NCBI GenBank assembly: GCA_015055625.1
Contig: SVHU01000006.1
Span: forward strand, 32,325 to 56,324
DNA from: Clostridiales bacterium
GTDB lineage: Bacteria > Bacillota > Clostridia > Christensenellales > Pumilibacteraceae
Reading direction: 5' to 3'
Length of the DNA stretch: 24,000 nucleotides
This document shows positions 8,762-24,000 of the stretch, piece by piece. Position numbers and translations under genes: made by a program. Under the pieces are notes generated by a model. It searched no databases and was not told the DNA's origin. It was given only the letters and a program-made list of their open reading frames with translations. Within the stretch, counting starts at the first letter, position 1; every line of letters begins with the position of its first letter.

Positions 8762-8799
8762 ATAAAAAAGACGTTACGCATAATATACGCATAACGTCT
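8762..8799 (-). terminator. rho-independent terminator of the XRE gene
   Basis: agacgtta / taacgtct stem (8769-8799), followed on the minus strand by ttttttat. Confidence 0.7.
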
Positions 8800-8825
8800 A
8801 AAAGGTTGTTTATATAAAATTTACA

Positions 8826-9026
8826 TTATTCAATTTCCGAGAAAAATTCGTCGTAGGTCAGGTCAAAAGCCTTTACGAGCGCTATAATATACGAAAGCTT
8901 GGGCTCGTTTACGTCGCGTTCCCAATAATCTATCGCCTTCTGGCTAACACCTATTTCTTTTGCCAGCTGTGCCTGCGTATACCCCTTTTCTCTTCTTAAT
9001 TCTCTTATATAATGTCCTATCTTCAT
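8826..9026 (-). CDS. XRE-family (Cro/CI-type) HTH transcriptional regulator
   Basis: 66 aa. HTH_3 signature (LRREKGYTQAQLAKEIGVSQKAIDYWERDVNEP). There is no SD. A TATAAT (9034-9039, minus strand) ends 7 nt before the ATG, so the mRNA may be leaderless. Confidence 0.85.
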   Translation of the reverse strand: MKIGHYIRELRREKGYTQAQLAKEIGVSQKAIDYWERDVNEPKLSYIIALVKAFDLTYDEFFSEIE

Positions 9027-9038
9027 ATTATATATTAT

Positions 9039-9083
9039 AGAAGAAATCTTCTTATTATGCTTGACAAAGAAGAAATCTTCTTA
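9039..9083. promoter_or_regulatory. two copies of a 16 bp palindrome-containing operator candidate (agaagaaatcttctta)
   Basis: Exact copies at 9039-9054 and 9068-9083, start-to-start spacing 29 bp. Each contains agaag-N4-cttct. Copy 2 fills the spacer of the plus-strand promoter. Copy 1 fills the spacer of the XRE promoter. Confidence 0.6.
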
Positions 9084-9089
9084 TATAAT
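9061..9089 (+). promoter_or_regulatory. perfect-consensus sigma-A promoter, divergent from the XRE gene
   Basis: TTGACA (9061-9066), exactly 17 nt spacer, TATAAT (9084-9089). Confidence 0.7.
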
Positions 9090-9365: not shown

Positions 9366-9896
9366 TTAATAATTGTAGCCTGTTTGCAAAGCTTTGATGT
9401 TTGCCTCTAACAAGCTTGCGCGCTTTGCGGAAACTACGTGTTTCATAGCTTCGGTTGCGCTTTCGAGCGTTACAAGACCTGTTTCCTTGATCATTTTGCC
9501 AAGGATAATCATGTTTGCAAGAGTGGGAGTTCCTAGCTCGTTTGCAAGACGTGTAGCAGGAATGTAGTATGCGTCAACGTCTTTACGAACAACCTCTCTG
9601 GATATAAGAGCGCTGTCTACAAAGATTTTTCCGCCAGCTACCGTTGCGTTTTCGTACTTGTCGAGCGAGGGAAGATTCATTGCTATAAGAATTGTGGGGT
9701 TAGAAACGATGGGCGAGCCAACGGGTTCGTCGCTGATAATAACTCCGCAACTTGCCGTACCACCACGCATTTCAGGGCCGTATGAGGGAAGCCAGCTAAC
9801 CTGCTTGTTTTCCTCAAGACCTTCGTATGCTAAGCATTTTCCAGCAAAGAGAACGCCCTGTCCGCCGAATCCTGCGATAAGAATTTCGTTAGTCAT
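9366..9896 (-). CDS. 2-oxoacid:ferredoxin oxidoreductase, gamma subunit
   Basis: 176 aa. IAGFGGQGVLFAGK motif typical of POR/VOR/KOR gamma subunits. Confidence 0.9.
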   Translation of the reverse strand: MTNEILIAGFGGQGVLFAGKCLAYEGLEENKQVSWLPSYGPEMRGGTASCGVIISDEPVGSPIVSNPTILIAMNLPSLDKYENATVAGGKIFVDSALISREVVRKDVDAYYIPATRLANELGTPTLANMIILGKMIKETGLVTLESATEAMKHVVSAKRASLLEANIKALQTGYNY

Positions 9897-9899
9897 AGC

Positions 9900-10652
9900 T
9901 TAGTCCTCCTTTATTTGTGAACCCTTATCCTTGTACACGCCAAGGGGGTAGTAGGGAATCATATTGGTGTCAACCCACTCCAAAGCCTTAGCGGGAGTCA
10001 TACCCCAGTTTGTAGGACAGGTGGACACGATTTCGATAAGGGAGAATCCCTTACCTTCTACCTGATTTTTAAAAGCCTTCAAGATAGCCTTTTTAGCGTT
10101 TCTAACGTTTTTAACGTTGTTTACCGCAACACGCTCGATGTAGTAGGGAGCGTCGAGAGCGGAAAGCATTTCGCTTACCTTAATGGGATAGCCTGCGGTG
10201 TTCACGTCACGGCCGTAAGGCGAGGTTTGGGTAACCTGACCGGGAAGAGAGGTAGGAGCCATTTGTCCGCCTGTCATTCCGTAGATTGCGTTGTTTACGA
10301 AAATAATAGTGATGTTTTCGTTTCTTGTCGCCGCGTGAACGGTTTCAGCCATACCGATAGAAGCAAGGTCGCCGTCGCCCTGGTAGGTAAAGATAATATT
10401 TTCGGGCATAGCGCGCTTAAGACCGGTAGCAACTGCAGGAGCACGTCCGTGAGCTGCTTCTACCATATCGCAAGCAAAGTAGTCATAAGCCATTACTGCG
10501 CATCCAACGGGAGCAACACCAACAGTCTTACCTTCGATTCCAAGTTCGTCGATAGCCTCGGCTACAAGACGGTGAATAATACCGTGCGTACAACCGGGAC
10601 AGTAATGAAAAGGAGCATCTGTTAATGCCTTGGGTTTTTCAAAAACTTTCAT
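9900..10652 (-). CDS. 2-oxoacid:ferredoxin oxidoreductase, beta (TPP-binding) subunit
   Basis: 250 aa. N-terminal CPGCTHG cysteine motif and a GDGD TPP/Mg motif (YQGDGDLASIG). Confidence 0.9.
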   Translation of the reverse strand: MKVFEKPKALTDAPFHYCPGCTHGIIHRLVAEAIDELGIEGKTVGVAPVGCAVMAYDYFACDMVEAAHGRAPAVATGLKRAMPENIIFTYQGDGDLASIGMAETVHAATRNENITIIFVNNAIYGMTGGQMAPTSLPGQVTQTSPYGRDVNTAGYPIKVSEMLSALDAPYYIERVAVNNVKNVRNAKKAILKAFKNQVEGKGFSLIEIVSTCPTNWGMTPAKALEWVDTNMIPYYPLGVYKDKGSQIKED

Positions 10653-10654
10653 TA

Positions 10655-11716
10655 TTACTTAACCTCCTTTGCCATTTTCTTAATGCTTTCCAAAACCTGT
10701 TCGGGAGAGGGGATCATACCACCTGTGCGGTTGCAAAGAACTACGGGACGAGAACAATCAATAGCAAGTCTTACGTCTTCTATCATTTGTCCCATAGAAA
10801 GCTCTACGCTAATAAAGCCCTTTACGGTTTCGGATGCTTTTTTAAGTACTGCTTTGGGGAAAGGCCAAAGGGTAATAGGACGGATAAGACCAACTTTAAT
10901 ACCCTGTTTTCTAGCCTCTACTACCGCATTTTTAGAAATACGTGAAGCAATACCGAATGAAACTACGCAGTACTCTGCGTCTTCCATCATAAATTCTTCG
11001 TACATAACCTCGTTCTTTTCAATCTCGGCATATCTTTCATAGCGTTCGAAATTGGTTTGCTCGAGCTGTTCGGGGTTGAGGTAAAGCGAATTTACGATAT
11101 TGTGTTTTCTCTCGCCCTTTGTTCCTCTTACTGCCCAAGGCTTTTCAACCTCTTTAACTTCAAGCTCGGGAAGTTCAACGGGCTCCATCATCTGACCGAG
11201 CGTTCCGTCTGCAAGAAGCATTGTAGGAACTCTGTACTTGTCCGAAAGATCGAACGACTTAATAGTAAGGTCAGCCATTTCCTGAACGGATGCGGGTGCT
11301 ACTACGATAAGACGGTAGTCGCCGTGTCCGCCACCCTTTGTTGCTTGGAAATAATCGGACTGAGAGGGTTGTATTCCGCCAAGTCCGGGACCACCACGCT
11401 GTACGTTTACGATAAGAGCGGGAAGGTCTGCGCCTGCTATGTAAGAAATTCCCTCTTGTTTAAGAGAAATTCCAGGGCTGGAAGAAGACGTCATAACTCT
11501 AAAGCCTGCGCCTGCAACGCCGTATACCATGTTAATAGCCGAAACTTCGCTTTCAGCCTGGAGGAAAGTTCCGCCGATTTTGGGCATACGTTTAGCCATA
11601 TAAGCCGCAATTTCCGTTTGGGGAGTGATGGGGTAACCGAAGTAGTGTCTGCAACCTGCTTTGATTGCAGCTTCCGCGATTGCCTCGTTACCTTTCATTA
11701 AAACTTTATTACTCAT
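10655..11716 (-). CDS. 2-oxoacid:ferredoxin oxidoreductase, alpha subunit
   Basis: 353 aa. MKGNEAIAEAAIKAGCRHYFGYPITPQTEI is typical of the OFOR alpha N-terminal domain. Confidence 0.9.
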   Translation of the reverse strand: MSNKVLMKGNEAIAEAAIKAGCRHYFGYPITPQTEIAAYMAKRMPKIGGTFLQAESEVSAINMVYGVAGAGFRVMTSSSSPGISLKQEGISYIAGADLPALIVNVQRGGPGLGGIQPSQSDYFQATKGGGHGDYRLIVVAPASVQEMADLTIKSFDLSDKYRVPTMLLADGTLGQMMEPVELPELEVKEVEKPWAVRGTKGERKHNIVNSLYLNPEQLEQTNFERYERYAEIEKNEVMYEEFMMEDAEYCVVSFGIASRISKNAVVEARKQGIKVGLIRPITLWPFPKAVLKKASETVKGFISVELSMGQMIEDVRLAIDCSRPVVLCNRTGGMIPSPEQVLESIKKMAKEVK

Positions 11717-11724
11717 AATTCACC

Positions 11725-11931
11725 TCACTTTTCGACAGTAATTACACAGTCGGGGCACATTGTAGCGCAGAACGCGCATCCAATGCACTTTTCCTGATCG
11801 GTAATTTCCGCCGGAGAATGACCTTTTGCGTTAATTCTGTCTTTTGCGATAGCCAGAATTTTTTTGGGGCATGCGTCTATACAAAGTCCGCATCCCTTGC
11901 AAAGATTGTCGTTAAAAGTTACCTTTGCCAT
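11725..11931 (-). CDS. 2-oxoacid:ferredoxin oxidoreductase, delta subunit (2x[4Fe-4S] ferredoxin)
   Basis: Two CxxCxxCxxxCP motifs (CKGCGLCIDACP, CIGCAFCATMCP). Start moved from the track's 11955 to the ATG at 11931 (MAKVTF), which has AAGGAG 9 nt upstream. Confidence 0.85.
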   Translation of the reverse strand: MAKVTFNDNLCKGCGLCIDACPKKILAIAKDRINAKGHSPAEITDQEKCIGCAFCATMCPDCVITVEK

Positions 11932-11935
11932 ACTT

Positions 11936-12607
11936 TTATATCTCCTTAATATCAAAATATTTTTTTTGTAACGTCATAGCGAACGTGTTGTCCGCGTTAA
12001 GATTTTTGCTCACCTCTTGCGTACAAGAAGTAAACAGCAACGGAAGTCCTGTTTTTTCGCAAAGCTCTTTAGCTTTATTAAACGTGCTCTCAACGTCTTT
12101 TGCCGTGGTAAGGTTGCCAAGGTTAGAGTTGTTTACAACGCTTGTAAACTTGATTTTGCACGCGTCCTCTATCTCGCGCATAACCTCGATAGCAGAGTCT
12201 GCGTCGGGAGTTAAGGGACGGAAGAAGTTTGCAACAAATACCATTTCGTAGTTGTTTTCTTCCTTTATAAAGTCTGCGTATCTGCCTAAGGCGTACGCGC
12301 CTCTGTCGTCGCCACCTACATCTAAAACAGCGTAGTAACTCTTGTCCCAAACTAGCGCGTAAAGTTGTTGAGGAAGAGCGGGAAGATCAACGTTAGAATT
12401 TGCAAAAGCAGGGGAAATAAGCTCTATGCCCGCATCGCTTAGCTCTTTAGCGCTATCCTTTGTTCTAAAGTACGGATTGACGATATCCATATCTCCAATT
12501 TTTACAGGATAACCGTTTTGCTTAATACGTATTGCGTAATTTACGGCAATATTGGTTTTACCACTACCGTAATGACCGGCAAATATCGTTATGCGTTTAG
12601 GTTCCAT
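11936..12607 (-). CDS. P-loop NTPase of unknown role (SIMIBI/GPN-loop-like)
   Basis: Walker A motif GHYGSGKT near the N-terminus. The ATG at 12605-12607 overlaps the ilvE stop as TAATG. The track start at 12616 is a TTG. Confidence 0.75.
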   Translation of the reverse strand: MEPKRITIFAGHYGSGKTNIAVNYAIRIKQNGYPVKIGDMDIVNPYFRTKDSAKELSDAGIELISPAFANSNVDLPALPQQLYALVWDKSYYAVLDVGGDDRGAYALGRYADFIKEENNYEMVFVANFFRPLTPDADSAIEVMREIEDACKIKFTSVVNNSNLGNLTTAKDVESTFNKAKELCEKTGLPLLFTSCTQEVSKNLNADNTFAMTLQKKYFDIKEI

Positions 12608-13683
12608 TATTTGCAAACCTTTACGCTCCAGCCCTTATTCTCTTCGATCTTGCCCCACTGAATACCGGTAAGGTTGTCGTAGAGTTTTTGAGTAAGAGGT
12701 CCAATTTCGTTATTGGAAACAGTGTAGTCTTTTCCGTTGTAGAAAAGATGTCCGATGGGCGAAACAACCGCTGCAGTTCCTGTTCCCCAAGCTTCTTCCA
12801 ACGTTCCTTTTTCACAAGCTTCAAATAACTCGTCGATAGAGAAAAGTCTTTCTTCAACTTCGTATCCCCAATCCTTTAGTAGCTCGATGCAAGACTTTCT
12901 GGTAATACCGGGAAGAATAGATCCGCTAAGCATAGGAGTTACTATTTTGCCGTTTATCTTGAACATAACGTTCATAGCGCCAACTTCTTCGATGTACTTT
13001 CTTTCCACACCGTCAAGCCACAAAACCTGAGCATAGCCCTTTTCTTCAGCGCGCTGACCTGCTCTCATGCTTGCAGCGTAGTTACCACCGCACTTAGCAT
13101 ATCCAGTTCCGCCTCTAACTGCTCTTACGTCCTCGCTCTCGATAGCGATTTTAACGGGCTTAAGACCAGAAGCGTAGTAAGCGCCTACGGGTGAGCAAAT
13201 AATAACGAACATTGCGTTGTGTACTGCGTGTACGCCAAGATGGGGATCGTCACCGTAAATAAAGGGACGAATGTAAAGCGAAGTACCCTCGTTGTGGGGA
13301 ACCCAATCTTTTTCGAGCTCTACAAGCTTGTTAATGATGTCCAAAGCGCCCTCTTCATCAAGAAGGGGAAGACAAATTCTCTCCGCGCTCTGGTTAAGAC
13401 GCTTAACGTTCTCCATGGGACGGAAAAGTCTGATAGATCCGTCGACAGCTCTATAAGCTTTCATACCCTCGAAGATTTCCGCTCCGTAGTGGAAAACCGT
13501 GGAAGCAGGATGTGTTGGGATAGGTCCGAACGGAACGATTCTTCCGTCGTGCCAACCCTTATCCGAAGAATATTCCATAATGAACATGTGATCGGTAAAA
13601 ATTCTTCCAAATCCAAGCTTGCTCTCGTCAGCAGGCTTTGGCTGGGGATTAGTTGTTTTAGTAATAGTGATATCGTATTTCAT
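12607..13683 (-). CDS. ilvE: branched-chain amino acid aminotransferase (class IV, long form)
   Basis: 358 aa. FGRIFTDHMF, EGMKAYR and GTGTAAVVSPI motifs. GGAGG SD upstream. Confidence 0.9.
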   Translation of the reverse strand: MKYDITITKTTNPQPKPADESKLGFGRIFTDHMFIMEYSSDKGWHDGRIVPFGPIPTHPASTVFHYGAEIFEGMKAYRAVDGSIRLFRPMENVKRLNQSAERICLPLLDEEGALDIINKLVELEKDWVPHNEGTSLYIRPFIYGDDPHLGVHAVHNAMFVIICSPVGAYYASGLKPVKIAIESEDVRAVRGGTGYAKCGGNYAASMRAGQRAEEKGYAQVLWLDGVERKYIEEVGAMNVMFKINGKIVTPMLSGSILPGITRKSCIELLKDWGYEVEERLFSIDELFEACEKGTLEEAWGTGTAAVVSPIGHLFYNGKDYTVSNNEIGPLTQKLYDNLTGIQWGKIEENKGWSVKVCK

Positions 13684-13706: not shown

Positions 13707-16004
13707 TTATAACTTATTTCTCATAATCTTTCCGCTGGTGGTCTTGGGAAGTTCGTCGCGGAACACAACCACTCTGGGATATTTGTAAGGTGCGGTACGT
13801 TTCTTAACGTATTCCTGTACCTCTTTTTTGAGCGCTTCGGTAGGCTCTGTACCCTTAACAAGCACGATGCTTGCTTTTACAATCTGGCCTCTTACCTCGT
13901 CGGGCATTGCGGAAACTCCACACTCCAAAACGTAGGGAAGTTCCATAATAACGTTTTCGATTTCGAATGGTCCAATGCGGTATCCTGACGATTTTATGAC
14001 GTCGTCAACACGACCTACGTACCAATAATATCCGTCCTCGTCGCGCCAAGCGGTGTCGCCTGTGTGGTATAAGCCGTTACGTCTGACCTCGCTAGTCTTT
14101 TCCTCGTCCTCAAAGTAGCCGAGCGTAAGTCCGCAAGGGTTGCCTTTGCTTATATCAATAACAATTTCACCTACTTCGCCGACTGCAACGGGTTTGTCAT
14201 CACTGTTTACAAGCGAAATGTTATAAAGCGGGACGGGTTTACCCATAGAGCCAATCTTGGTTTTTGTTCCAAAAAGGTTAGCAAGCGCAACCGTGGTTTC
14301 GGTTTGACCAAATCCTTCCATAATTTGAAGTCCGGTAGCCTTTTCAAACTGACGGAAAACTTCGGGGTTAAGCGCTTCGCCTGCTGTGGTCATATGTTCT
14401 ATGGAAGATAGGTCAAAGTTGGAAAGGTCTTGTTTTATCATCATACGAAGCATTGTGGGTGGAGCGCAGAAAGTAGTAATATGATGCTTTGCAAACATGG
14501 GCATAATATCGTTTGCGTCAAACCTGTCAAAGTCGTACACGAATATGGGCGCTTCGCAAAGCCACTGACCGTATATCTTACCCCAGGCAGCTTTTGCCCA
14601 ACCTGTGTCGGAAATGGAAAGGTGTAATCCATCGGGGTTTACGCAATGCCAATACTTTGCGGTAACAAAATGTCCAAGAGGATATTTGTAGTTGTGCATA
14701 GCAACCTTGGGATTGCCCGTTGTTCCCGACGTAAAGTACATAAGCATCAAATCGTTGCCACAGGGAGAGTCTTCCGTTCTTTCGAACTTGCTGGAATATA
14801 AAGTATATTCTTCGTCAAAGTTTCTCCAGCCCTTTTTTTCGCCGTTTACGATAATTTTATGTTCAAGACAGGGAGCAAACTCGCTTGCCTTTTCTACCTC
14901 GTCCGAAACGTCGCCGTCCGCTGTACAAAGAATCATTTTTACGCCAGCTTTATTAAGACGGTATGTTATATCATGCTCTTTAAGCTGATTGGTAGCTGGA
15001 ATTGCAATAGCGCCTATCTTGTGAAGAGCGACCATAGCAAACCAGAACTGATAATGGCGCTTTAGGATAAGCATAACCTTGTCGCCCTTTTTTATACCTA
15101 AAGACTTAAAGTAGTTAGCGGTTTTTGCCGACATTTTCTTTATATCGGTAAATGTAAATCTTCTTTCCGTCTTGTCCTTAGCAATATGCAAAAGAGCAAG
15201 CTTGTCGGGATGAGCGGTTGCCATTGCGTCGATTACGTCAAAGCCGAAGTTGAACGTATTTTCGTTTTCAAAAGCGATCTTTTCAAGCTGACCGTTTTCG
15301 TTTTCGGTAGGAATAATAAACTTATTCCAAACGCGCTTAGGCTCGGGCTTTTTGTTTTGCTTTCTAACCGTGATAAATTCTCTTGCTCCGCCGTGAACGA
15401 GCTTAGAGATAGGCTCGGACGCAGGGTTAAGTACGATTGCGTAGAAGATACAGTCTGCTCCGCCTGTTGCAATCATTCCGTGAGGGGTGGAGGAGTCGTA
15501 GTAAATACTATCACCTTCGCCCAAGATTTCAACGTGGTCACCAACTTGCACTTTAAGCGTGCCCTTAACAACGATATCACATTCCTGACCTTCATGGGTA
15601 GTAAGCTCGATGTCCGCGTTTTGCGCGTTTTCGTCATAGTCGGAAATAACGTACAAGGGTTCTGCAATACGATTTTTAAAAGCAGATGCTAAGTTAAAAT
15701 ACGTCATACCGTGCGCTTTCTGAATTTGTTGTCCCTCACCCTTTCTTGTAACGGTATAGCCTGCAAGACGAGGGCCTGTTCCTTCGATAATTTCGGTAAC
15801 GTCTACGTTAAGCGCAAGAGCGCAACGGTACAAAAACGCGAAGTTAAGGTCGGATTTTCCGCTTTCGCAGTCTAGGTATTCCTGTAAAGTTACTCCAGTC
15901 TTTGTCGCCATATCCATTGTCGTAAGACCGATAATTTCACGCAAAGTCTTAATTCTTTGCGCCATTTCCTGAATCTTAAATTCAAGACCTGTTGCTGTTT
16001 GCAT
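13707..16004 (-). CDS. fusion protein: XRE HTH + cupin domain + medium-chain AMP-forming acyl-CoA synthetase (paralogue A)
   Basis: 765 aa from the ATG at 16004 (MQTATGLEF...), with AAGGAGG 6 nt upstream. The track's extra 55 N-terminal codons run through the T-box terminator. It has an HTH (TMDMATKTGVTLQEYLDCESGKSDL) and a cupin (GTLKVQVGDHVEILGEGDSIYYDSSTPHGM). The adenylation motifs are FTSGTTGNPK, SDTGWAKAAW, YHTGD, GRVDDVIKSSGYRIGPFEIE and PKTTSGKIMR. Confidence 0.9.
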   Translation of the reverse strand: MQTATGLEFKIQEMAQRIKTLREIIGLTTMDMATKTGVTLQEYLDCESGKSDLNFAFLYRCALALNVDVTEIIEGTGPRLAGYTVTRKGEGQQIQKAHGMTYFNLASAFKNRIAEPLYVISDYDENAQNADIELTTHEGQECDIVVKGTLKVQVGDHVEILGEGDSIYYDSSTPHGMIATGGADCIFYAIVLNPASEPISKLVHGGAREFITVRKQNKKPEPKRVWNKFIIPTENENGQLEKIAFENENTFNFGFDVIDAMATAHPDKLALLHIAKDKTERRFTFTDIKKMSAKTANYFKSLGIKKGDKVMLILKRHYQFWFAMVALHKIGAIAIPATNQLKEHDITYRLNKAGVKMILCTADGDVSDEVEKASEFAPCLEHKIIVNGEKKGWRNFDEEYTLYSSKFERTEDSPCGNDLMLMYFTSGTTGNPKVAMHNYKYPLGHFVTAKYWHCVNPDGLHLSISDTGWAKAAWGKIYGQWLCEAPIFVYDFDRFDANDIMPMFAKHHITTFCAPPTMLRMMIKQDLSNFDLSSIEHMTTAGEALNPEVFRQFEKATGLQIMEGFGQTETTVALANLFGTKTKIGSMGKPVPLYNISLVNSDDKPVAVGEVGEIVIDISKGNPCGLTLGYFEDEEKTSEVRRNGLYHTGDTAWRDEDGYYWYVGRVDDVIKSSGYRIGPFEIENVIMELPYVLECGVSAMPDEVRGQIVKASIVLVKGTEPTEALKKEVQEYVKKRTAPYKYPRVVVFRDELPKTTSGKIMRNKL

Positions 16005-16030: not shown

Positions 16031-16308
16031 TATAAAAACTCGCCCCAAACGATAAAATCCTTTGAGACGAGTAAAATTCTTTATACCCGCGGTACCACTC
16101 AAATTGTACGCTTATTTTGCGTACCACTTTCAGGCTCTGACAAGCCGTATGCCTTAACGCAGCAATCACGAGGAAGTTCTACTTAAAAACTCTTTCTTCT
16201 TCCCTGCTCTGAAGTTACATCAAACGCTTTTACGTGGCGGTTTTCACCCTGTTCCGCCTCTCTGTAACGCAATTTTACGCGGTTGAACTCTTCGTCTATG
16301 CATTTGTA
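16031..16308 (-). promoter_or_regulatory. T-box riboswitch leader, putative specifier GUA (Val)
   Basis: On the minus strand I see these elements:
- Stem I with an AGAGAG bulge and a GGGTGAAAA distal loop.
- An F-box-like CGTGATTGCTGCGTTA.
- A stem III hairpin gtacgc...gcgtac.
- The T-box sequence AATTTGAGTGGTACCGCGGG (16086-16105).
- A terminator actcgtctcaaa/tttggggcgagt (16038-16072) followed by TTTTT.
The candidate specifier GUA is at 16216-16218, followed by A and then the CUUC lower stem. Confidence 0.85.
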
Positions 16309-16314
16309 CAAGTG

Positions 16315-16344
16315 ATTATAGCATACTAAGTGAAATCTTGTCAA
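16315..16344 (-). promoter_or_regulatory. promoter of T-box leader A
   Basis: Minus strand TTGACA (16339-16344), 18 nt spacer, TGcTATAAT (-10 at 16315-16320). Confidence 0.7.
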
Positions 16345-16373: not shown

Positions 16374-18644
16374 TTAAAGTTTATTTCTCTGAATTTTTCC
16401 GCTGATAGTTTTAGGAAGCTCGTCCTTAAACACAATAACTCTTGGGTATTTATAGGGAGCGGTGTGTGATTTTACGTAGTTTTGAATTTCTTTTTTAAGT
16501 TCTTCTGAAGGCTCGGTGCCCTTAGTAAGAACAATACTTGCTTTTACAATCTGTCCACGGATTTCGTCGGGAACGGCGGATACACCGCATTCCACAACGT
16601 ATGGAAGTTCCATAATAACGCTTTCGATTTCGAACGGTCCAATGCGGTAGCCAGAAGACTTGATAACGTCGTCTATACGGCTAACGTACCAAAAATATCC
16701 GTCCTCGTCTTTCCAAGCGGTGTCGCCCGTATGATACATTCCGTCGTACCAAGCATCGTTTGTCTTTTCTTCGTCGAGATAATATTCTCTAAAGAGTCCG
16801 CAAGGAACGTTTTTGTCGGTGTGAACAACAATTTCACCAACTTCACCGGGAGCAACTGATTTGCCTTCGCTGTCCACGATATCAATATCATACTGGGGAG
16901 AAGCTTTACCCATAGATCCAATCTTGGGAGTTGTTCCGTAAAGGTTAGCGATTGTAAGAGTGGTTTCGGTTTGACCAAATCCTTCCATAATTTCAAGCCC
17001 GGTAGCTTGCTTAAACTGTTTGAATACTTCGGGGTTGAGCGCTTCGCCTGCCGTAGTCATGTGGTGGATAGAGGAAAGATCGAACTTGGATAAGTCACCT
17101 CTGATAAGCATACGGAGCATTGTGGGAGGAGCGCAGAATGTGGTGATCTGGTACTTTGCAAACATGGGAAGAATGTCGTTTTCGTCAAACTTGTCAAAGT
17201 CGTATACGAACACCGCGCCCTCGCAAAGCCACTGTCCGTAAAGCTTACCCCACAAAGATTTACCCCAACCGGTATCGGAGATTGTAAGATGTAAGCCGTC
17301 GCGTTCGCAACAATGCCAATATTTAGCGGTTACAAAATGACCTAAAGCGTAGGTGTGCTTGTGCGCAGCCATCTTAGGATTGCCGGTAGTTCCGGACGTG
17401 AAGAACATAAGAGCAATGTCGTCGCCACAAGACGCGTCTTCGGGACGAACGAAACGGCGAGAGAAGAACTTGTATTCTTCGTCAAAGTCGTGCCAGCCCT
17501 CTTTCTTTCCGCCCACCAAAATACGGGTTTGAACGGAAGGACACTTAAGAGAAGCGGAGTATGCGATATCCGCAACGTCGCCGTCAGCGGTACAAACGAT
17601 TGCTTTTACACCAGCCGCGTTGTAGCGGTATTCAAAGTCGTGTTCTTTAAGCTGGTTGGTTGCAGGAATTGCAACAGCGCCAAGCTTGTGAAGAGCTACC
17701 ATAGCAAACCAGAACTGGTAATGACGCTTAAGAACGAGCATAACCTTATCACCGCGCTTGATGCCAAGAGAAGCAAAATAGTTAGCAGTCTGGTTACTTG
17801 CGTCCTTGATATCTTTGAAGGTAAATCTTCTTTCGTTTTTATGCTTGTCAAGATGCAACATTGCAAGTTTATCGGGATACGTACGCGCGATTTGGTCAAC
17901 AATGTCAAAACCGAAGTTGAACGAATCGGTGTTTTCGAACGTGATGCTTTCAAGCTTTCCGTCCTCGCTTTCCACGGGTTTTACAAACTTTTCGCAAATG
18001 AGTTTTTCCTGACTTCTTGCCGTGATGATAGTACGCTGAACGATATCTTCCTTGGTGTCTTCGCCTGCGATAACTACCGCGCAGAAGGTACAGTCCTTAC
18101 CGTCTATTGCAATCATTCCGTGAGGAGTGGATGAGTCGTAGTAAATGCTGTCGCCCTCGTGCAAAATCTCGGTGTGGTTGCCAACCTGAACTTTCAAAGT
18201 TCCGCTAAGAACAAGGTCAAACTCGTGTCCGCTGTGTGTGGTAACGTGAATGGGCTTGTTTTGAAGCGAAGCCGAATATTCGTAGGTTACGTAATAAGGC
18301 TGAGCGAGTTTGTTACGGAACTTAGATGCAAGGTTTTGAATGGTTATACCGTCCTCTTTAGCGGTGGTAAGACCTTGACCTTTTCTAGTTACAGTGTAGT
18401 TAGAAAGGCGTGTTGCTCTACCTTCCAACAACTCTGTCATTTCAATATTGAAAGCAAGCGAACATTTGTGAATGAATGTAAATGGAATGTCCGCAGTTCC
18501 GCTTTCATAAGCGTTATAAAGTTCGGTAGAAACGTCGGTTTTTACAGCCATTTCTTCCTCGGTCCAGCCCATAATTTCACGCATTTCTCTGATACGTGTT
18601 GCGATATCTGATAATCTGCGCATAGAATTGTTTTGGTTGTTCAT
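16374..18644 (-). CDS. fusion protein: XRE HTH + cupin domain + medium-chain AMP-forming acyl-CoA synthetase (paralogue B)
   Basis: 756 aa, same architecture as paralogue A. It has an HTH (EEEMAVKTDVSTELYNAYESGTADI) and a cupin (HSGHEFDLVLSGTLKVQVGNHTEILHEGDSIYYDSSTPHGM). The adenylation motifs are FTSGTTGNPK, SDTGWGKSLW, YHTGD, SRIDDVIKSSGYRIGPFEIE and PKTISGKIQR. AAGGAGAA SD upstream. Confidence 0.9.
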   Translation of the reverse strand: MNNQNNSMRRLSDIATRIREMREIMGWTEEEMAVKTDVSTELYNAYESGTADIPFTFIHKCSLAFNIEMTELLEGRATRLSNYTVTRKGQGLTTAKEDGITIQNLASKFRNKLAQPYYVTYEYSASLQNKPIHVTTHSGHEFDLVLSGTLKVQVGNHTEILHEGDSIYYDSSTPHGMIAIDGKDCTFCAVVIAGEDTKEDIVQRTIITARSQEKLICEKFVKPVESEDGKLESITFENTDSFNFGFDIVDQIARTYPDKLAMLHLDKHKNERRFTFKDIKDASNQTANYFASLGIKRGDKVMLVLKRHYQFWFAMVALHKLGAVAIPATNQLKEHDFEYRYNAAGVKAIVCTADGDVADIAYSASLKCPSVQTRILVGGKKEGWHDFDEEYKFFSRRFVRPEDASCGDDIALMFFTSGTTGNPKMAAHKHTYALGHFVTAKYWHCCERDGLHLTISDTGWGKSLWGKLYGQWLCEGAVFVYDFDKFDENDILPMFAKYQITTFCAPPTMLRMLIRGDLSKFDLSSIHHMTTAGEALNPEVFKQFKQATGLEIMEGFGQTETTLTIANLYGTTPKIGSMGKASPQYDIDIVDSEGKSVAPGEVGEIVVHTDKNVPCGLFREYYLDEEKTNDAWYDGMYHTGDTAWKDEDGYFWYVSRIDDVIKSSGYRIGPFEIESVIMELPYVVECGVSAVPDEIRGQIVKASIVLTKGTEPSEELKKEIQNYVKSHTAPYKYPRVIVFKDELPKTISGKIQRNKL

Positions 18645-18691
18645 ATTACTTTCTCCTTGTAAATAAAAGTTTAGATTTTAGGTCGAGGCAA

Positions 18692-18959
18692 TAAAAAAAT
18701 TCGCCTCAAAAACTTTGAGACGAATTATAAAAATCCGTGGTACCACTCAAATTGCGTAAATTTTTACGCCACTTCAGACTCCAACAAGCCCTATGCACTA
18801 ACGTAGCAATCACGTAAGTCTTTACTTACTTTCGCTTTCAAAACTTCAGCTTGGAAGTGATAAGATATTCGAAGTTTGTTTGTCGGTTTTCACCATGCCC
18901 AACTCTCTGTAAAACTCACATTCGACTCCGTCTTCGTCGTAGCCTTTGATTAAATTGAT
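18692..18959 (-). promoter_or_regulatory. T-box riboswitch leader, putative specifier AUC (Ile)
   Basis: On the minus strand I see these elements:
- An AGAGAG bulge and a GGTGAAAA distal loop.
- An F-box-like CGTGATTGCTACGTTA.
- A stem III hairpin gcgtaaa...tttacgc.
- The T-box sequence AATTTGAGTGGTACCACGG (18735-18753).
- A terminator attcgtctcaaa/tttgaggcgaat (18699-18725) followed by TTTTTTT.
The candidate specifier AUC is at 18859-18861, followed by A and then the CUUC lower stem. Confidence 0.85.
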
Positions 18960-18965
18960 GTAGCA

Positions 18966-18994
18966 ATTATAACACCGCATTTCGCACTTGTCAA
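18966..18994 (-). promoter_or_regulatory. promoter of T-box leader B
   Basis: Minus strand TTGACA (18989-18994), 17 nt spacer, TGtTATAAT (-10 at 18966-18971). Confidence 0.7.
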
Positions 18995-19047: not shown

Positions 19048-19281
19048 CTAATCCTCAAAATCATTAAAATAGTCTTTGTTGAAAAACTCGGACAAAGTAA
19101 TGTTTGCGCCTTGACAAAATGCTTTAATCGTGGAAACTTTAGAACATTTGGTTCTGCCCTTAATCAAATCGTATAAAGCCGATGGGGATTTTCCTCCGTT
19201 TAAGGACGCTCCGCATACGTTTATGTTCTTTTCTTTGCAAATTTCCTCAATTCTTCTGATAATCGCATCATTTATATTCAT
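19048..19281 (-). CDS. small XRE-like HTH DNA-binding protein
   Basis: 77 aa from the ATG at 19281 (MNINDAIIRRIEEICKEK...), with GAAGGTGG SD 7 nt upstream. The track start at 19320 adds 13 unsupported codons. Confidence 0.7.
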   Translation of the reverse strand: MNINDAIIRRIEEICKEKNINVCGASLNGGKSPSALYDLIKGRTKCSKVSTIKAFCQGANITLSEFFNKDYFNDFED

Positions 19282-19294
19282 ACATAACCACCTT

Positions 19295-19368
19295 CGTGGA
19301 ATTCCATACAGGTATTCCACGAAAATAGTATAAGAATTTTAAAAATTATTATCTCGTGGAGTTCCACG
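19295..19368. promoter_or_regulatory. operator candidates built on GTGGAA/TTCCAC half-sites
   Basis: IR1 is cgtggaat-N11-attccacg (19295-19321) and contains tggaattcca. IR2 is cgtgga-gt-tccacg (19355-19368). Both lie in the divergent intergenic region between the XRE-like gene and the SMP-30-family gene. Confidence 0.5.
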
Positions 19369-19396
19369 ATTGTTGACATTGTAGCGTGTTTTTTTG

Positions 19397-19426
19397 TTGA
19401 CAGCGTTTATTGTTTAATGATAAAAT
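19397..19426 (+). promoter_or_regulatory. promoter of the SMP-30/gluconolactonase-family gene
   Basis: TTGACA (19397-19402), 18 nt spacer, TGaTAAAAT (-10 at 19421-19426). Confidence 0.55.
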
Positions 19427-19472
19427 ACAAGAGGAAGTAAAGAGTTTATATAATAAATTAATGGAGATTGTT

Positions 19473-20339
19473 ATGGGCAAATTAGATATTATTAAAATTA
19501 TATCCGAAAAACGTTGTATTATCGGCGAGGGCCCGATTTGGAACGAGTGTGAAAACACGCTGTATTTTACTAACGGAATGGGCGGTGAGATTTGCTCGTA
19601 TAATTTTACTAATGATAAGCTGAGCGTAAGACCGCTTCCGTTTTCGGTTTCGGCGTTTGCTTTTGACAGACAAAACCGTTTGATTGTATCGAATGTAAAT
19701 GGCGTACATTTTCTCAATTCAGATAATACGTTATCGCCTATTTATGACCAAAATACAAAAATAGAGTATGCAAACGATATGAAAGTGGGCCCGGATGGCG
19801 CGATATACGTGGGAACTCAAAGCGGAAAAAGAAAGGGTGTTTCGGATAAGATTGACGGCAAGCTTTATAGAATTGCGCCGAGTGGAGAAGTAGAAATTCT
19901 GCTTGATAATTTAATTTTGTCAAACGGTATGGAGTGGTCGATAGATGAGAAAAAATTCTATCACACCGATAGCGATACGAGAATAATAAAGGAATATGAT
20001 TTCGACAGATCTACCGGGAAAATAAGTTATACAGGCAGAGAGATTTATATAAGGGGAGTGGACGGCTTTACTATTGGTCAAGACAATAATTTATACGTTG
20101 CTTGTTGGGCGCAAGGACATATCGCCGTTATTGATACTCAGACGTTGCAGATTAAAGAGTTTATCGACGTGCCGTGTCGTATTCCTGCAAGCTGTGGCTT
20201 TTGCGGAAAGGATATGGACGTTCTTGCAATAACCACCGCAAGCTATCACGCTGATATGGATAACGATAAAAACGCAGGCTTTACGGTTTTAGCTAAAATG
20301 CAAATAAAGGGAAGGCTTCCTTATATTTTTGCAAAATAA
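19473..20339 (+). CDS. SMP-30/gluconolactonase/LRE-family (six-bladed beta-propeller) protein
   Basis: 288 aa from the ATG at 19473 (MGKLDII...), with GGAGA 5 nt upstream. EGPIWNE, NDMKVGPDG and SNGMEWS motifs are typical of the SGL family. The track start at 19410 is a TTG with no SD. Confidence 0.8.
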   Translation: MGKLDIIKIISEKRCIIGEGPIWNECENTLYFTNGMGGEICSYNFTNDKLSVRPLPFSVSAFAFDRQNRLIVSNVNGVHFLNSDNTLSPIYDQNTKIEYANDMKVGPDGAIYVGTQSGKRKGVSDKIDGKLYRIAPSGEVEILLDNLILSNGMEWSIDEKKFYHTDSDTRIIKEYDFDRSTGKISYTGREIYIRGVDGFTIGQDNNLYVACWAQGHIAVIDTQTLQIKEFIDVPCRIPASCGFCGKDMDVLAITTASYHADMDNDKNAGFTVLAKMQIKGRLPYIFAK

Positions 20340-20404: not shown

Positions 20405-22861
20405 TTACTTTTTAAGTCCAAGCATTTCTTCGGACTGTTCTTTCATCTTGTACTTCAAGATTTTGCCCGCAGCATTCATGGGGAAGGTTTTTGCAAATAC
20501 GATGTATCTGGGAACTTTGTGTAAAGCCATGTGAGCTTTTCCGTAGTTCTTCATTTCTTCCTCACTGCTTTCCATTCCTTCGTGAAGGATAATCCAAGCG
20601 CAAGCTTCTTCGCCATAACGAGGATCGGGAACGCCAACAACCTGTACGTCGCGAACTTTTTCGTGGGTTAAGTAAAACTCTTCGATTTCTCTGGGATACA
20701 AGTTTTCTCCGCCACGGATAATCATATCCTTAAGTCTGCCCGTAATTTTGTAGTATCCGTCCTCGGTCTTGCAAGCAAGGTCGCCACTGTGAAGCCAGCC
20801 GTCTGCGTCAATAGTTTGAGCGGTTGCTTTGGGCATTTTGTAGTAGCCTTTCATTATATTAAAGCCTCTTGCTACAAATTCGCCGTTTTGACCTGCAGGA
20901 AGTTCGTCGCCTGTTTCGGGATCGATAATTTTACACTCAACGCCGGGGAATGCGCTACCAACGGTTTCCACTCTGTGGTCGATATCCTCGTTAACCTCGC
21001 CCATAGTACATCCGGGCGATGCTTCGGTCTGACCGTAAACGGAAAGAATTTCTTTCATATTCATTTCGTCCGCAGCTCTTCTCATTAGGTCAGCAGGGCA
21101 GTTTGCGCCCGCCATAATTCCCGTACGCATATATGAAAAGTCGGTTTTAGCAAAGTCTTCGTGGTTGAACATTGCGATAAACATTGTGGGAACGCCGTTA
21201 AAGCAGGTTATCTTTTCGGCATTGATGCACGCAAGCGAGGACTTGGGGCTAAAGTATGGCATAGGACATACCGTTCCGCCGTGAGTCATAAGGTTGGTCA
21301 TAGAAAGTACCATTCCAAAGCAGTGGAACATAGGTACTTGAATCATCATTCTGTCAGCGGTAGAAATATCCATTCTGTCGCCGATGGTCTTACCGTTGTT
21401 GATGATGTTGCGGTGAGTAAGCATAACGCCTTTAGGGAAGCCTGTTGTTCCTGACGTGTACTGCATATTACATACGTCGTCGGGTTTTACAGCAGAAGCT
21501 CTTCTTCTTACTTCCTCTTTTGGAACAAGCGAGGAACGAAGCAACATTTCTTCCCACTCCAAGCATCCGTCCATCTTAAAGCCTACCGTTACAACGTTAC
21601 GAAGGAAGGGAAGCTTTTTAGAATAGAGGGGAGCGCCGGGGGTAAGCGTTTTAAGCTCGGGGCAAAGCTCTTCGATAATAGCCTTATAGTCAGAGTCCTT
21701 ACAGCTGTCTATCATAACGAGTGTATGCGTGTCGGACTGACGAAGCAAGTATTCGGTTTCGTGAATTTTGTAAGCGGTGTTTACTGTTACGAGTACCGCG
21801 CCGATTTTTACCGTTGCCCAAAAGGTTATGAACCACTGGGGAATATTGGTTGCCCAGATTGCAACGTGATGCCCGGGCTTTACGCCAAGAGATATAAGCG
21901 CTGCCGCCGTTCTGTCCACATCGTCCCTGAACTGCGAGTAAGTTCTCGTGTAGTCGAGCGTTGTATACTTAAACGCATACTGGTCGGGATAGTAGTCTAC
22001 CATAGTGTCGAGAACCTGTGAGAATGTAAGATCGACAAGATCGTATTTTTTCCAAGGATGAGTACCTGTTTTGCTTCTGTTATAATATACCGGACGGGCA
22101 GGTTTTTCTTGTGGCATAACCGACGCCATAAAGCGAGTAAAATGAGTAAGGATAATGTCTTCGTCGTCAATATCGTCATTCCAAAGCGCGCAAACGTATC
22201 CGTCAAAGTTGAGCGAACGGAGAGCGTTAATAAAGTCTGCTACCGGCAAATCGCCCTCGCCAATCAGACAGTTAACGCCGTCTTTTTTGTCGCCTATAAG
22301 AACGTAGTTAATGTACGCGCCCAAGGTTTGAATAGTAGCATCCGCGCTCTCTGAAGATGTAAAGAAAGTTTCTCTTACGTTCCAAGCAACACCAAGCGCG
22401 CCGGAAGCAAAAATGTTCAAAATGTCGATAACGTTTTGCGTTTTTGCGTACTTTCCGCTAGTTTCAATAAGTACCATTACGCCCAAATTTTCTGCTTTTT
22501 TAACAAGAGGAGCAATGGTAGAAATAAGCGCGTCAATCGTTTCGTTGTCGTCAAGTGATACAACGAGATTTTCAATTTGTGCGGTTGCGCAATACTCCAA
22601 ATATTCGTTTGCCTCGTCAATATCCAAAGAAGCGTTTACTTTTTTAGGATATGCAATCGCGCTGATACCGATGTGGCGGTTGACAAGCTTACGCTTAGCG
22701 CCTGCGGTATTGTTGGAGTGGAATATACTGTCTTTATGTTGCGTTTTTTCCTGTTTTGCGTCGTAAATTTCAAAGCCGTCAAAACCGTAGTCTTTAACCT
22801 TGTTACAAAGCTCAAGAAAGGAAGATCCGCACACGTGTTTTGTAGAAAATGCAAGTTTCAT
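20405..22861 (-). CDS. fusion protein: xylose-isomerase-like TIM-barrel (AP_endonuc_2-type) domain + AMP-forming acyl-CoA ligase (FadD-like)
   Basis: 818 aa. The first ~250 aa resemble the sugar-phosphate isomerase/epimerase TIM barrel (FDGFEIY ... LIETSGKYA ... FDGYVCALW). The rest carries adenylation motifs YTSGTTGFPKGVMLTH, GWLHSGD, GRLKDMIIRGGENLYPREIE and AAGKILK. Confidence 0.85.
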   Translation of the reverse strand: MKLAFSTKHVCGSSFLELCNKVKDYGFDGFEIYDAKQEKTQHKDSIFHSNNTAGAKRKLVNRHIGISAIAYPKKVNASLDIDEANEYLEYCATAQIENLVVSLDDNETIDALISTIAPLVKKAENLGVMVLIETSGKYAKTQNVIDILNIFASGALGVAWNVRETFFTSSESADATIQTLGAYINYVLIGDKKDGVNCLIGEGDLPVADFINALRSLNFDGYVCALWNDDIDDEDIILTHFTRFMASVMPQEKPARPVYYNRSKTGTHPWKKYDLVDLTFSQVLDTMVDYYPDQYAFKYTTLDYTRTYSQFRDDVDRTAAALISLGVKPGHHVAIWATNIPQWFITFWATVKIGAVLVTVNTAYKIHETEYLLRQSDTHTLVMIDSCKDSDYKAIIEELCPELKTLTPGAPLYSKKLPFLRNVVTVGFKMDGCLEWEEMLLRSSLVPKEEVRRRASAVKPDDVCNMQYTSGTTGFPKGVMLTHRNIINNGKTIGDRMDISTADRMMIQVPMFHCFGMVLSMTNLMTHGGTVCPMPYFSPKSSLACINAEKITCFNGVPTMFIAMFNHEDFAKTDFSYMRTGIMAGANCPADLMRRAADEMNMKEILSVYGQTEASPGCTMGEVNEDIDHRVETVGSAFPGVECKIIDPETGDELPAGQNGEFVARGFNIMKGYYKMPKATAQTIDADGWLHSGDLACKTEDGYYKITGRLKDMIIRGGENLYPREIEEFYLTHEKVRDVQVVGVPDPRYGEEACAWIILHEGMESSEEEMKNYGKAHMALHKVPRYIVFAKTFPMNAAGKILKYKMKEQSEEMLGLKK

Positions 22862-22863
22862 AT

Positions 22864-24000
22864 TTAGTTTTCCTCGTATACGATTTTGTTAAGAGCGTTT
22901 ATATATGCTCTGATGCACGCGCCGATAACGTCTGTGGATACACCGCTGCCCGAATACAGCTTGCCGTTTGCGATAAGACGAATAAGCGAAGAAGCCGCAG
23001 CCTCTCTACCCTTTGTAATAGACTGAATCTGGAAGTCGTCAAGTTCGTAGTGATGACCGATAATTTGCTCGATTGCATGAAAAGCTGCGTCAACAGGACC
23101 GTCCCCTGCACTTACGCCAATAAGGTTCTCGCCATCCTTTTCCAAGGTTATGCTTGCAGTTGCGGTAATAATGTTTCCGCTGTTTACAACGTAGTTTACG
23201 AGATGGAAAGTTGAGGGAACTTGCATTGCGGTACTTGCTACTATTGCATCAAGTTCACGTGTTGCAATATTTCCCTTTCTTTCGCTTACGCGCTTAAACT
23301 CTTCATAAACTTTGCCGTTATCCTCGTCCGAAAGCTCGTAGCCGAGTTCTTTGATCTTTTCGATAATAACGGAAAGAGAAGCGGATGCGTCAATGGTAGA
23401 ACCTGCGTCTTTATTGGGCTTAGATGTAGGCTCGTTGTCCGAGATAGTAGATACCGTATTGTGGATAGACGTACAATCGAGGTTGCAATCAAACTGAATT
23501 TCGTCGCCCTTTGCTCTCATAAGGTCAGCAAATTTGTCTGGGCGCATAACGTCGCCGTCGGTTGCGGTCTTAACGCCAATCGCGCCGTTTTCTAAAGATG
23601 CTACCGCGCAAGCACAAGCAAGAGAAATCTTGTCTGAGGTTGCTACGTATACTTTTACTTCAGGAGCAACGCTACATACTTCTTTTATAAGCGCACCCAT
23701 TTTGCAAGGGAATGCAATTCCTGCATCGTCGCATACGGTAATCTCGGTTGCCCCATTTTCAATAGCAACTTTTGCGCACTGAGCAACAAAACCGTTTTCA
23801 GCTCTCGTTGCGTCTGTTGCAACAAATTCTACCGTATAGCCCGTTTCACTAGCTTTTTTAGTGATAGATGCAATTTTTTCCAGCATCTTAGGTGCTTTTA
23901 AGTGGTAGGTGTACTCCATAACCACGGTGGACGTGGGCATAATAACCTGCAAAACTGCGTTTTCGGCATTCTTTGCCATTTCGATTGCAGCGGTAAAGGA
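22864..24000 (-). CDS. 2-isopropylmalate synthase-like protein with a degenerate catalytic domain and an intact LeuA_dimer regulatory domain; 5' end outside the window
   Basis: The frame stays open to 24000. The C-terminus matches the LeuA allosteric domain (GDGPVDAAFHAIEQI ... GSGVSTDVIGACIRAYINALNKI). The upstream HMGL-like part aligns to LeuA, but DTVGY is DDAGI and the HxH(N/D)D metal motif is ATSDK. The stop lies 2 nt from the start of the next gene. Confidence 0.75.
   Translation of the reverse strand, partial: SFTAAIEMAKNAENAVLQVIMPTSTVVMEYTYHLKAPKMLEKIASITKKASETGYTVEFVATDATRAENGFVAQCAKVAIENGATEITVCDDAGIAFPCKMGALIKEVCSVAPEVKVYVATSDKISLACACAVASLENGAIGVKTATDGDVMRPDKFADLMRAKGDEIQFDCNLDCTSIHNTVSTISDNEPTSKPNKDAGSTIDASASLSVIIEKIKELGYELSDEDNGKVYEEFKRVSERKGNIATRELDAIVASTAMQVPSTFHLVNYVVNSGNIITATASITLEKDGENLIGVSAGDGPVDAAFHAIEQIIGHHYELDDFQIQSITKGREAAASSLIRLIANGKLYSGSGVSTDVIGACIRAYINALNKIVYEEN

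Follow-up and report, generated by a model that had tools for sequence, protein, structure and literature searches.

An AUC-specifier T-box leader upstream of an acyl-CoA synthetase gene in a probable branched-chain amino acid salvage cluster of uncultured Clostridia

T-box leaders switch genes on in response to uncharged cognate tRNA, a sign that the amino acid is scarce. Anaerobes of the rumen and gut need isobutyrate, 2-methylbutyrate, and isovalerate, and they carboxylate these acids into valine, isoleucine, and leucine; to our knowledge, the genes for this assimilation of branched-chain fatty acids (BCFA), and their control, are poorly defined in the abundant uncultured Clostridia. Here, we analyzed a 24,000-nucleotide stretch of a Clostridiales bacterium genome (contig SVHU01000006.1, positions 32,325 to 56,324), referred to below as the window. 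An initial annotation of its sequence had proposed two T-boxes in series, leader B with an isoleucine specifier and leader A with a valine specifier, in front of two paralogous acyl-CoA synthetase genes (ACS-B and ACS-A), which are followed by ilvE and the genes of a 2-oxoacid:ferredoxin oxidoreductase. Taken as a whole, the data are best explained, with good confidence on our part, by leader B being an attenuating tRNA-Ile T-box for ACS-B within a three-module salvage of branched-chain amino acids (BCAA). The features of the locus are listed in Table 1.

The closest described leaders are the ileS-type T-boxes (B. subtilis ileS and the solved ileS leaders of Nocardia and Mycobacterium), which are of the same class as leader B and carry the same AUC specifier. 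Leader B resembles them in its Stem II S-turn, its Stem IIA/B, its UGGN bulge, and the purine that follows its codon (PMC7583486), and it shares control through a terminator and an antiterminator with the ileS leaders of Firmicutes. Unlike these, leader B precedes an acyl-CoA synthetase gene rather than that of the Ile-tRNA ligase, a compact 2-by-5 loop and an extra covarying helix take the place of the S-turn-bearing specifier loop, and its orthologues score just below the Rfam threshold. The Leu T-box of B. subtilis ilv-leu and other biosynthetic T-boxes also couple tRNA charging to BCAA supply, and ilv-leu has the same CUC specifier as a Leu leader that belongs to the cluster studied here. 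The cluster differs from ilv-leu in that it apparently salvages BCFA by reductive carboxylation instead of making BCAA de novo from pyruvate or threonine, and in that three specificities are lined up in one place. Tandem T-boxes such as those of thrZ in Bacillus, and contiguous riboswitches (PMC12452182), likewise put more than one T-box, as successive gates, on one potential transcript. In the known tandem arrangements, one leader contains neighboring T-box copies that share a specificity, whereas the copies described here differ in specificity, are separated by a 2.3-kb gene, and have a promoter each.

On the enzyme side, Macs is the nearest solved relative of the catalytic part of ACS-B and shares with it the GWGK and AKYW motifs; among NCBIfam models, MbcS scores best. 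Unlike Macs and MbcS, both ACS-A and ACS-B have an extra N-terminal module of 230 residues with HTH_XRE and cupin domains, and at 451 (ACS-B) and 431.9 bits (ACS-A) against an equivalog cut-off of 850, they are related to MbcS without being called MbcS. The oxidoreductase has the same four-subunit delta/alpha/beta/gamma form as VOR, its alpha subunit passes the VorB model, and its genes adjoin ilvE. A VOR and IlvE are the pair of enzymes needed for the reductive carboxylation of BCFA to BCAA, which is known from the physiology of rumen bacteria and is predicted here. A literature search that did not cover the Vitreschak 2008 comparative survey found no paper linking T-boxes to BCFA, an acyl-CoA synthetase, or a VOR. 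Apparently, a known riboswitch class is used here in an undescribed regulon.

Leader B matched the Rfam T-box model RF00230 from 18949 to 18713 on the minus strand (model positions 1 to 219) with 103.6 bits (E = 3.4e-22), the curated gathering score being 93 bits. This resemblance is far beyond chance and confirms that leader B is a T-box. The span originally assigned to the element, 18692 to 18994, fits exactly, running from the −35 hexamer of promoter P_B through the U-run after the terminator. Each motif that the initial annotation listed was found at its place on the minus strand, among them the CGUGAUUGCUACGUUA box and CUUAUC-A-CUUCC, with AUC at 18861 to 18859 and CUUC at 18857 to 18854. 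The AGAGAG bulge and the GGUGAAAA loop, which are the motifs of the tRNA-elbow platform, are present in leader B and kept at the sequence level among its orthologues. In the RF00230 alignment, the antiterminator helices UGAG/CUCA and ACGGA/UUCGU (the usual G-U pair included) flank a seven-base bulge, UGGUACC. UUCGUCUCA is used twice, as the 5′ strand of the terminator and as the 3′ strand of the antiterminator, a sharing that is the standard design for transcription attenuation (PMC7583486). The 3′ strand of the K-turn reads CAAGC in leader B and CGAGC in most orthologues. Free-energy folding of the whole leader gave a non-T-box structure (z = −1.11), a result that carries no information for a multidomain, ligand-dependent RNA. 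As had been noticed from the sequence, leader A is built on the same scaffold: RF00230 matched it from 16307 to 16060 on the minus strand with 99 bits, it has the same boxes, with GUA-A-CUUC at 16218 to 16211, and the two leaders of the window align over their full length.

For the comparative analysis, one genome per species was scanned and 577 synthetase relatives were found, of which the best 80 loci were taken forward. All of these come from uncultured gut or rumen Clostridia, with synthetases 69 to 83% identical. A search by nhmmer with both window leaders as queries identified 134 leaders in the 80 loci; full-length leaders in front of B-type synthetases scored higher with leader B and those in front of A-type synthetases higher with leader A. 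Specifiers were counted in MAFFT/RNAalifold alignments of Stem I (69 B and 50 A leaders), and the remaining leaders were read by eye. All 60 A leaders, all 16 leaders of a third, Leu type described below, and all but one of the 74 B leaders contain UGGU; a terminator-like hairpin of −10 kcal/mol or lower follows 70/74 B, 57/60 A, and 15/16 Leu-type leaders.

In the Stem I alignment of the 69 B orthologues (A2), 94% of cells are paired and both-side changes occur in 15 of 22 pairs. The covariation score was reached by 0 of 500 shuffles, and slid controls were only 33 to 55% paired. The lower helix changes between GAAG/CUUC and GAGG/CCUC among B leaders and is also found as GAAA/UUUC, GGGG/CCCC, GGAG/CUCC, and AAAG/CUUU among A leaders. 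Moreover, columns 16 to 19 of A2 pair with columns 92 to 95 (GGNN/NNCC; 91.8% paired, double changes in three of the four pairs), which leaves the specifier of the B family in a compact 2-by-5 internal loop. The specifier loop of leader B, described earlier as long, is thus partly a helix. The B family lacks the canonical form of this loop, in which the codon lies below an S-turn (AGUA/GAA); this absence is a structural variant, and membership in the T-box class stands given the full model match.

AUC was found in all 69 aligned B orthologues in the register of codon, one base, and lower helix, and by eye in five further B leaders that retain Stem I. The register is that of the A leaders and agrees with the TBDB rule, by which the specifier is formed by nucleotides 2 to 4 of its loop, counted from the 3′ end (PMC7778990). 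The base after a T-box specifier is unpaired and usually a purine (PMC7583486); in the window, the codon is followed by an unpaired A, and 48 of the 69 leaders have A at this position, 19 have C, and 2 have G. The base before AUC is a pyrimidine in 68 of the 69 leaders (U 27, C 41, G 1). The A leaders specify GUA (45) or GUC (5), synonymous Val codons that are followed by G or A, in 50 of 50 orthologues. Because the RF00230 alignment is of low confidence around the specifier (posterior probabilities 3 to 4), it was not used for the codon call. Thus, the contrast first read by eye, AUC (Ile) in leader B versus GUA (Val) in leader A, extends to the orthologues.

A third T-box, with the specifier CUC (Leu) followed by G, lies about 330 nt past the end of the window. 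It reads GUCUCGUAUC and scored 117.1 bits in contig Ga0318466_10003924 of JGI metagenome 3300031555 (locus L081), which carries the window sequence; its position there, 4292 to 4529, corresponds to window positions ~24333 to 24570. From two extra nhmmer matches with CUC, we derived a profile for this third leader type. Leu-type leaders were found in 16 loci, always with CUC and always upstream of a LeuA-like gene, and the unit of LeuA-like gene and TIM-barrel/ligase fusion behind a CUC leader was found in 16 other genomes. The LeuA-like protein is divergent, scoring 214 bits against the isopropylmalate synthase cut-off of 532. A metagenome pattern scan for a Leu copy of the scaffold in front of an acyl-CoA synthetase gene (CUY-N-CUUCYGAGY ... 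CGUGAUUGCU) returned 111 matches, none with a synthetase; these are an unrelated family of near-identical human-gut Leu T-boxes with no synthetase downstream, plus chance matches. That abundant family (L083 to L162; e.g., L085 at 2238 and L100 at 1689) reads CUC-C-CUUC, is followed at ~2.9 kb by a LeuA-like C-terminal domain, and is unrelated to the synthetase cluster.

The clade of a synthetase goes with the specifier of its leader. ACS-B scored 223.7 bits for AMP-binding and 77 bits for AMP-binding_C in Pfam, and its closest PDB chain is 3ETC, M. acetivorans Macs (E = 4.3e-188, residues 230 to 754). A neighbor-joining tree of 120 synthetases gave a clean split between 74 behind Ile leaders and 46 behind Val leaders; the tree leaves out two loci (L008 and L030) whose 5′-truncated leaders are mislabeled in type by score, and with both included there is no A|B split. 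Ten columns discriminate between the clades: eight in the HTH-cupin module, position 215 at the start of the linker, and position 461, the sole one in the catalytic domain. At residue 461, all 46 A-clade sequences have Ala, and 73 of the 74 B-clade sequences have Gly. This residue lies within GW[G/A]K, a motif whose aligned counterpart in acetyl-CoA synthetases is GW(I/V)T, a stretch that we take to line the acyl pocket. Like ACS-B, 3ETC has Gly at this position. A larger pocket for a C5 acid (the Ile precursor) and a smaller one for a C4 acid (the Val precursor) would fit the specifiers. The preferred substrate of Macs is 2-methylbutyrate (PMC10455477). The most likely reaction of ACS-B is the activation of 2-methylbutyrate as a CoA thioester, and ACS-A is a predicted isobutyrate-CoA ligase. 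The initial proposal that the paralogues were subfunctionalized in this way is supported indirectly, by the 74|46 cosegregation of specifier and clade and by the Gly461/Ala difference.

A different account, which we consider rather unlikely, is that both synthetases have one broad substrate range and that only their regulation diverged, giving two inputs for one activity. The paralogues are 64% identical and have nearly all catalytic motif residues in common, Macs itself adenylates many C3 to C8 acids (PMC10455477), genomes with the B unit only would need an enzyme serving more than one amino acid, and eight of the ten discriminating residues fall in the HTH-cupin module and not in the catalytic part. 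However, the clades are reciprocally monophyletic, each keeps its own specifier in all 120 cases, and the single catalytic discriminator is a Gly/Ala size switch in GW[G/A]K. The concentration of discriminating residues in the HTH-cupin module (ACS-B residues 1 to 230, positions 17955 to 18644; 15315 to 16004 in ACS-A) suggests a second, clade-specific function in sensing or DNA binding. HTH_XRE plus cupin is the architecture of a small-molecule-sensing DNA-binding regulator; the module had no match among PDB sequences at E ≤ 0.01.

At a distance of 16 to 19 nt upstream of Stem I, promoters with at least 10 of 12 consensus matches precede 67/68 B, 50/52 A, and 12/12 Leu-type leaders, against a background of 2.65% of random 82-nt windows. 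Since a near-consensus promoter precedes each T-box, each heads its own transcription unit, and the Ile, Val, and Leu T-box units are modular. The order T-box(Ile)-ACS-B-T-box(Val)-ACS-A-(IlvE)-P-loop-VorDABC is found in most of the 80 genomes. In the window, the genes from ACS-A through vorC are separated by gaps of 23 nt or less or overlap.

The initial annotation had read the series as a serial AND-type gate, in which transcripts from P_B must also pass the Val T-box. Part of this held: no terminator-like site was found in the 29 nt that separate the stop codon of ACS-B (16374) from the −35 hexamer of P_A (16344), so that transcripts from P_B would meet leader A. The other part, an Ile-AND-Val requirement, is made unnecessary by P_A; leader A has a promoter of its own with 12/12 matches, and ilvE and the oxidoreductase genes therefore need the Val gate only. 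It is doubtful that these genes depend mainly on transcription from P_B and so on limitation for both amino acids. The missing terminator and the B-then-A order kept in most loci would suit such dependence. P_A-like promoters before 50/52 A leaders speak against it, as do the 1 to 1.7 kb of unrelated genes that part ACS-B from leader A in several genomes and the seven genomes (L004, L035, L051, L063, L067, L068, and L070) that have no Val cassette and in which the Ile T-box and ACS-B directly precede the P-loop gene, vorDABC, and ilvE. Tandem duplication of a promoter/T-box/synthetase cassette explains the layout equally well, and the series is best seen as such a duplication. The single-cassette genomes may represent the ancestral state or a secondary loss. 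The genes inserted between ACS-B and the Val T-box (L015, 8443 to 9894; L026, 8257 to 9207; L045, 8269 to 9588) encode, in several genomes, an ACT plus metallo-beta-lactamase protein, a TIM-barrel protein, and a GDSL esterase; these varied insertions mark the cassette junction as an insertion hot spot.

In the mechanism that we propose, RNA polymerase would start at P_B and Stem I would display AUC in a small internal loop above the K-turn-proximal helix, with the AG bulge and the distal loop as the platform for the tRNA elbow. Uncharged tRNA-Ile(GAU) would pair its ACCA end with UGGU and lock the antiterminator, so that transcription would proceed into ACS-B. With charged tRNA, the 13-bp terminator at 18726 to 18698 and its U-run would form and transcription would stop. 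ACS-B would convert 2-methylbutyrate to the CoA thioester, the VOR-type oxidoreductase would carboxylate it reductively to 2-keto-3-methylvalerate, and IlvE would transaminate the latter to isoleucine. Three modules stand in a row: Leu (CUC) with the LeuA-like gene and the TIM-barrel/ligase fusion, Ile (AUC) with ACS-B, and Val (GUA) with ACS-A, ilvE, the P-loop gene, and vorDABC. Of these, the Ile and Val modules would be tandem duplicates whose specifier and enzyme diverged together, and read-through from B to A would halt at the Val T-box unless tRNA-Val is uncharged too.

The probable role of the cluster is to recover BCAA from branched short-chain fatty acids. AMP-forming ligases produce acyl-CoA at the expense of ATP, and they do not serve to conserve energy through the release of acids; together with the scarcity signal of the T-box, the VOR, and IlvE, such a ligase points to the biosynthetic direction. 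VOR-type enzymes and IlvE are reversible and run oxidatively in many amino acid fermenters, and the cluster might on that ground be taken to degrade BCAA through IlvE, an oxidative VOR, and acyl-CoA, with T-boxes on a catabolic or fermentative route. We regard this as highly improbable and reject a catabolic role: a signal that turns genes on when the amino acid is scarce has the wrong sign, the ligases consume ATP toward acyl-CoA, and the adjoining Leu T-box controls a LeuA-like enzyme of biosynthetic type.

Least probable of all, and contradicted by the comparative data, is a specifier in leader B other than AUC. The candidate triplets are UCA (Ser), shifted downstream by one base; UAU (Tyr), which directly follows GAA; AAU (Asn), which calls for UCUU as an alternative lower stem; and CUU (Leu). 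GAAUAUCUUAUCA of leader B alone permits several frames and the RF00230 alignment is uncertain there; CUU is followed by a purine, and, as the base after AUC varies among A, C, and G, the downstream frame would give UCA, UCC, or UCG, all Ser codons. However, UAU, AAU, and CUU sit in nonconserved columns, of which 92 to 95 form the covarying helix; the UAU and AAU readings left open by the initial annotation thus fall on positions that are paired or that differ among orthologues. The Ser frame leaves the invariant A97 unaccounted for and abuts the helix without a spacer base, and in the paralogous A leaders, it reads UAG or UAA, which are stop codons. Furthermore, the UGGU bulge of nearly all leaders predicts a tRNA with the discriminator A73; Ile, Val, and Leu tRNAs carry A73, whereas bacterial tRNA-Ser carries G73. 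The gene context, BCAA metabolism, likewise disagrees with these triplets.

Several observations weigh against a tRNA-Ile T-box serving isoleucine salvage through ACS-B. In the RNA, the specifier loop is atypical, with a covarying helix replacing most of the canonical 7-by-8 loop, the window's own copy of this helix is weak (only G-U, G-C, and A-U), and the base after the codon is C, not the usual purine, in 19/69 orthologues. The orthologous B and A leaders score 80 to 91 bits (E of about 1e-16 to 1e-18), just below the Rfam threshold, which the compact 2-by-5 loop probably explains. A search for tRNA genes in the window and 60 related loci found one tRNA-Met only and no cognate tRNA-Ile(GAU). 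Among the proteins, ACS-B falls under the MbcS equivalog cut-off (451 versus 850), and in Macs the acyl group occupies an alternative pocket (PMC10455477), so that residue 461 is presumed, rather than seen, to touch the substrate. Finally, isoleucine synthesis also needs the VOR and IlvE, which are here behind the Val gate. The subthreshold scores of the orthologous leaders also mean that the regulon is probably underannotated. Annotation at the Rfam threshold of 93 would miss the orthologous Ile and Val leaders.

A T-box specifier tells which amino acid a gene serves. Here, the specifiers label two otherwise indistinguishable synthetase paralogues "Ile" and "Val" and the LeuA-like/ligase pair "Leu," and these labels, combined with the VOR-type oxidoreductase and IlvE, yield concrete enzyme assignments. 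We put forward, tentatively, a three-channel salvage regulon in which the Leu, Ile, and Val cassettes would each switch on their own precursor-feeding enzyme and share a ferredoxin-dependent carboxylation and transamination core, having arisen by cassette duplication and later retargeting through the specifier, the Gly-to-Ala change, and the ligand- or DNA-binding surface of the HTH-cupin module. If this is true, the specifiers would assign, gene by gene, the long-sought BCFA assimilation enzymes of uncultured gut and rumen Clostridia, and the cluster would be a clean natural case of a riboswitch and an enzyme duplicating and changing specificity together.

Table 1. Features of the locus, in window coordinates
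Feature	Position	Strand	Basis or remark
Promoter P_B: TTGACA 18994-18989, 17-nt spacer, TATAAT 18971-18966, TG extension	18966..18994	-	12/12 sigma-70 consensus matches
T-box leader B: Stem I, Stem II, IIA/B, Stem III, antiterminator	18713..18949	-	RF00230
Stem I: basal helix, K-turn, lower helix, AG bulge, distal loop	18848..18944	-	69-orthologue alignment A2
Stem I lower helix GAAG / CUUC	18935-18932 / 18857-18854	-	alignment A2
AG bulge AGAGAG	18908-18903	-	sequence and alignment
Distal loop GGUGAAAA	18894-18887	-	sequence and alignment
Specifier AUC (Ile), then unpaired A18858	18859..18861	-	alignment
T-box sequence AAUUUGAGUGGUACCACGG	18735..18753	-	sequence and RF00230
UGGU bulge, predicted partner of tRNA 3′ end ACCA	18745-18742	-	sequence and RF00230
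Intrinsic terminator: 13-bp hairpin 18726-18698 and U-run	18691..18726	-	-14.2 kcal/mol
Ribosome-binding site AGGAG of ACS-B	18657-18653	-	sequence
ACS-B, 756 aa: HTH_XRE, cupin, AMP-binding, AMP-binding_C	16374..18644	-	Pfam
Promoter P_A: TTGACA, 18-nt spacer, TATAAT; 29 nt after ACS-B stop	16315..16344	-	12/12 matches
T-box leader A: specifier GUA (16218-16216), then A, then CUUC	16060..16307	-	RF00230
ACS-A, 765 aa, 64% identical to ACS-B	13707..16004	-	Pfam, alignment
IlvE, branched-chain aminotransferase	12607..13683	-	NCBIfam PRK13357, 478.6 bits vs cut-off 307
CbiA/ParA/NUBPL-like P-loop protein, 226 aa	11936..12616	-	weak Pfam matches; no NCBIfam match
Four-subunit 2-oxoacid:ferredoxin oxidoreductase (VOR-type, vorDABC)	9366..11931	-	Pfam, NCBIfam
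Delta subunit, 2x[4Fe-4S]	11725-11931	-	Pfam, NCBIfam domain matches
Alpha subunit	10655-11716	-	NCBIfam VorB PRK07119, 565.6 vs 399 bits
Beta subunit	9900-10652	-	Pfam, NCBIfam domain matches
Gamma subunit	9366-9896	-	Pfam, NCBIfam domain matches
Upstream Leu unit; its CUC T-box outside window	20405..24000	-	domain and model matches
LeuA-like gene, runs off window	22864 to past end	-	HMGL-like and LeuA_dimer
Xylose-isomerase-like TIM barrel and AMP-ligase fusion	20405-22861	-	domains
SMP-30/gluconolactonase-like gene	19410-20339	+	in insert
Small HTH-like open reading frame	19048-19320		in insert
XRE-type HTH open reading frame after vorC, 66 aa	8826-9026	-	
Strong 14-bp terminator after XRE-type open reading frame	8799-8769		
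12/12 consensus promoter, antisense into vorC	9061-9089	+	

The oxidoreductase subunits matched the Pfam families POR_N/PFOR_II, TPP_enzyme_C, POR, and Fer4; beta, gamma, and delta have Pfam/NCBIfam domain matches under the equivalog cut-offs. The P-loop gene between ilvE and the delta subunit gene keeps its place in nearly all loci long enough to include it, and its product may serve the oxidoreductase in maturation or in the delivery of iron-sulfur clusters. A 1.4-kb insert (19048 to 20339) lies between the Leu unit and P_B and is without counterpart in most relatives. No Rfam family matched around window positions 8769 to 9089, the region of the XRE-type open reading frame, its terminator, and the antisense promoter. 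Elsewhere in the window (5910 to 6431 and 585 to 1613) are an HTH_11 plus 3H-domain regulator, a DAHP (3-deoxy-D-arabino-heptulosonate 7-phosphate) synthase, and two zinc-ribbon proteins, and the related locus L046 has a flavin mononucleotide (FMN) riboswitch at 13982 to 14106.

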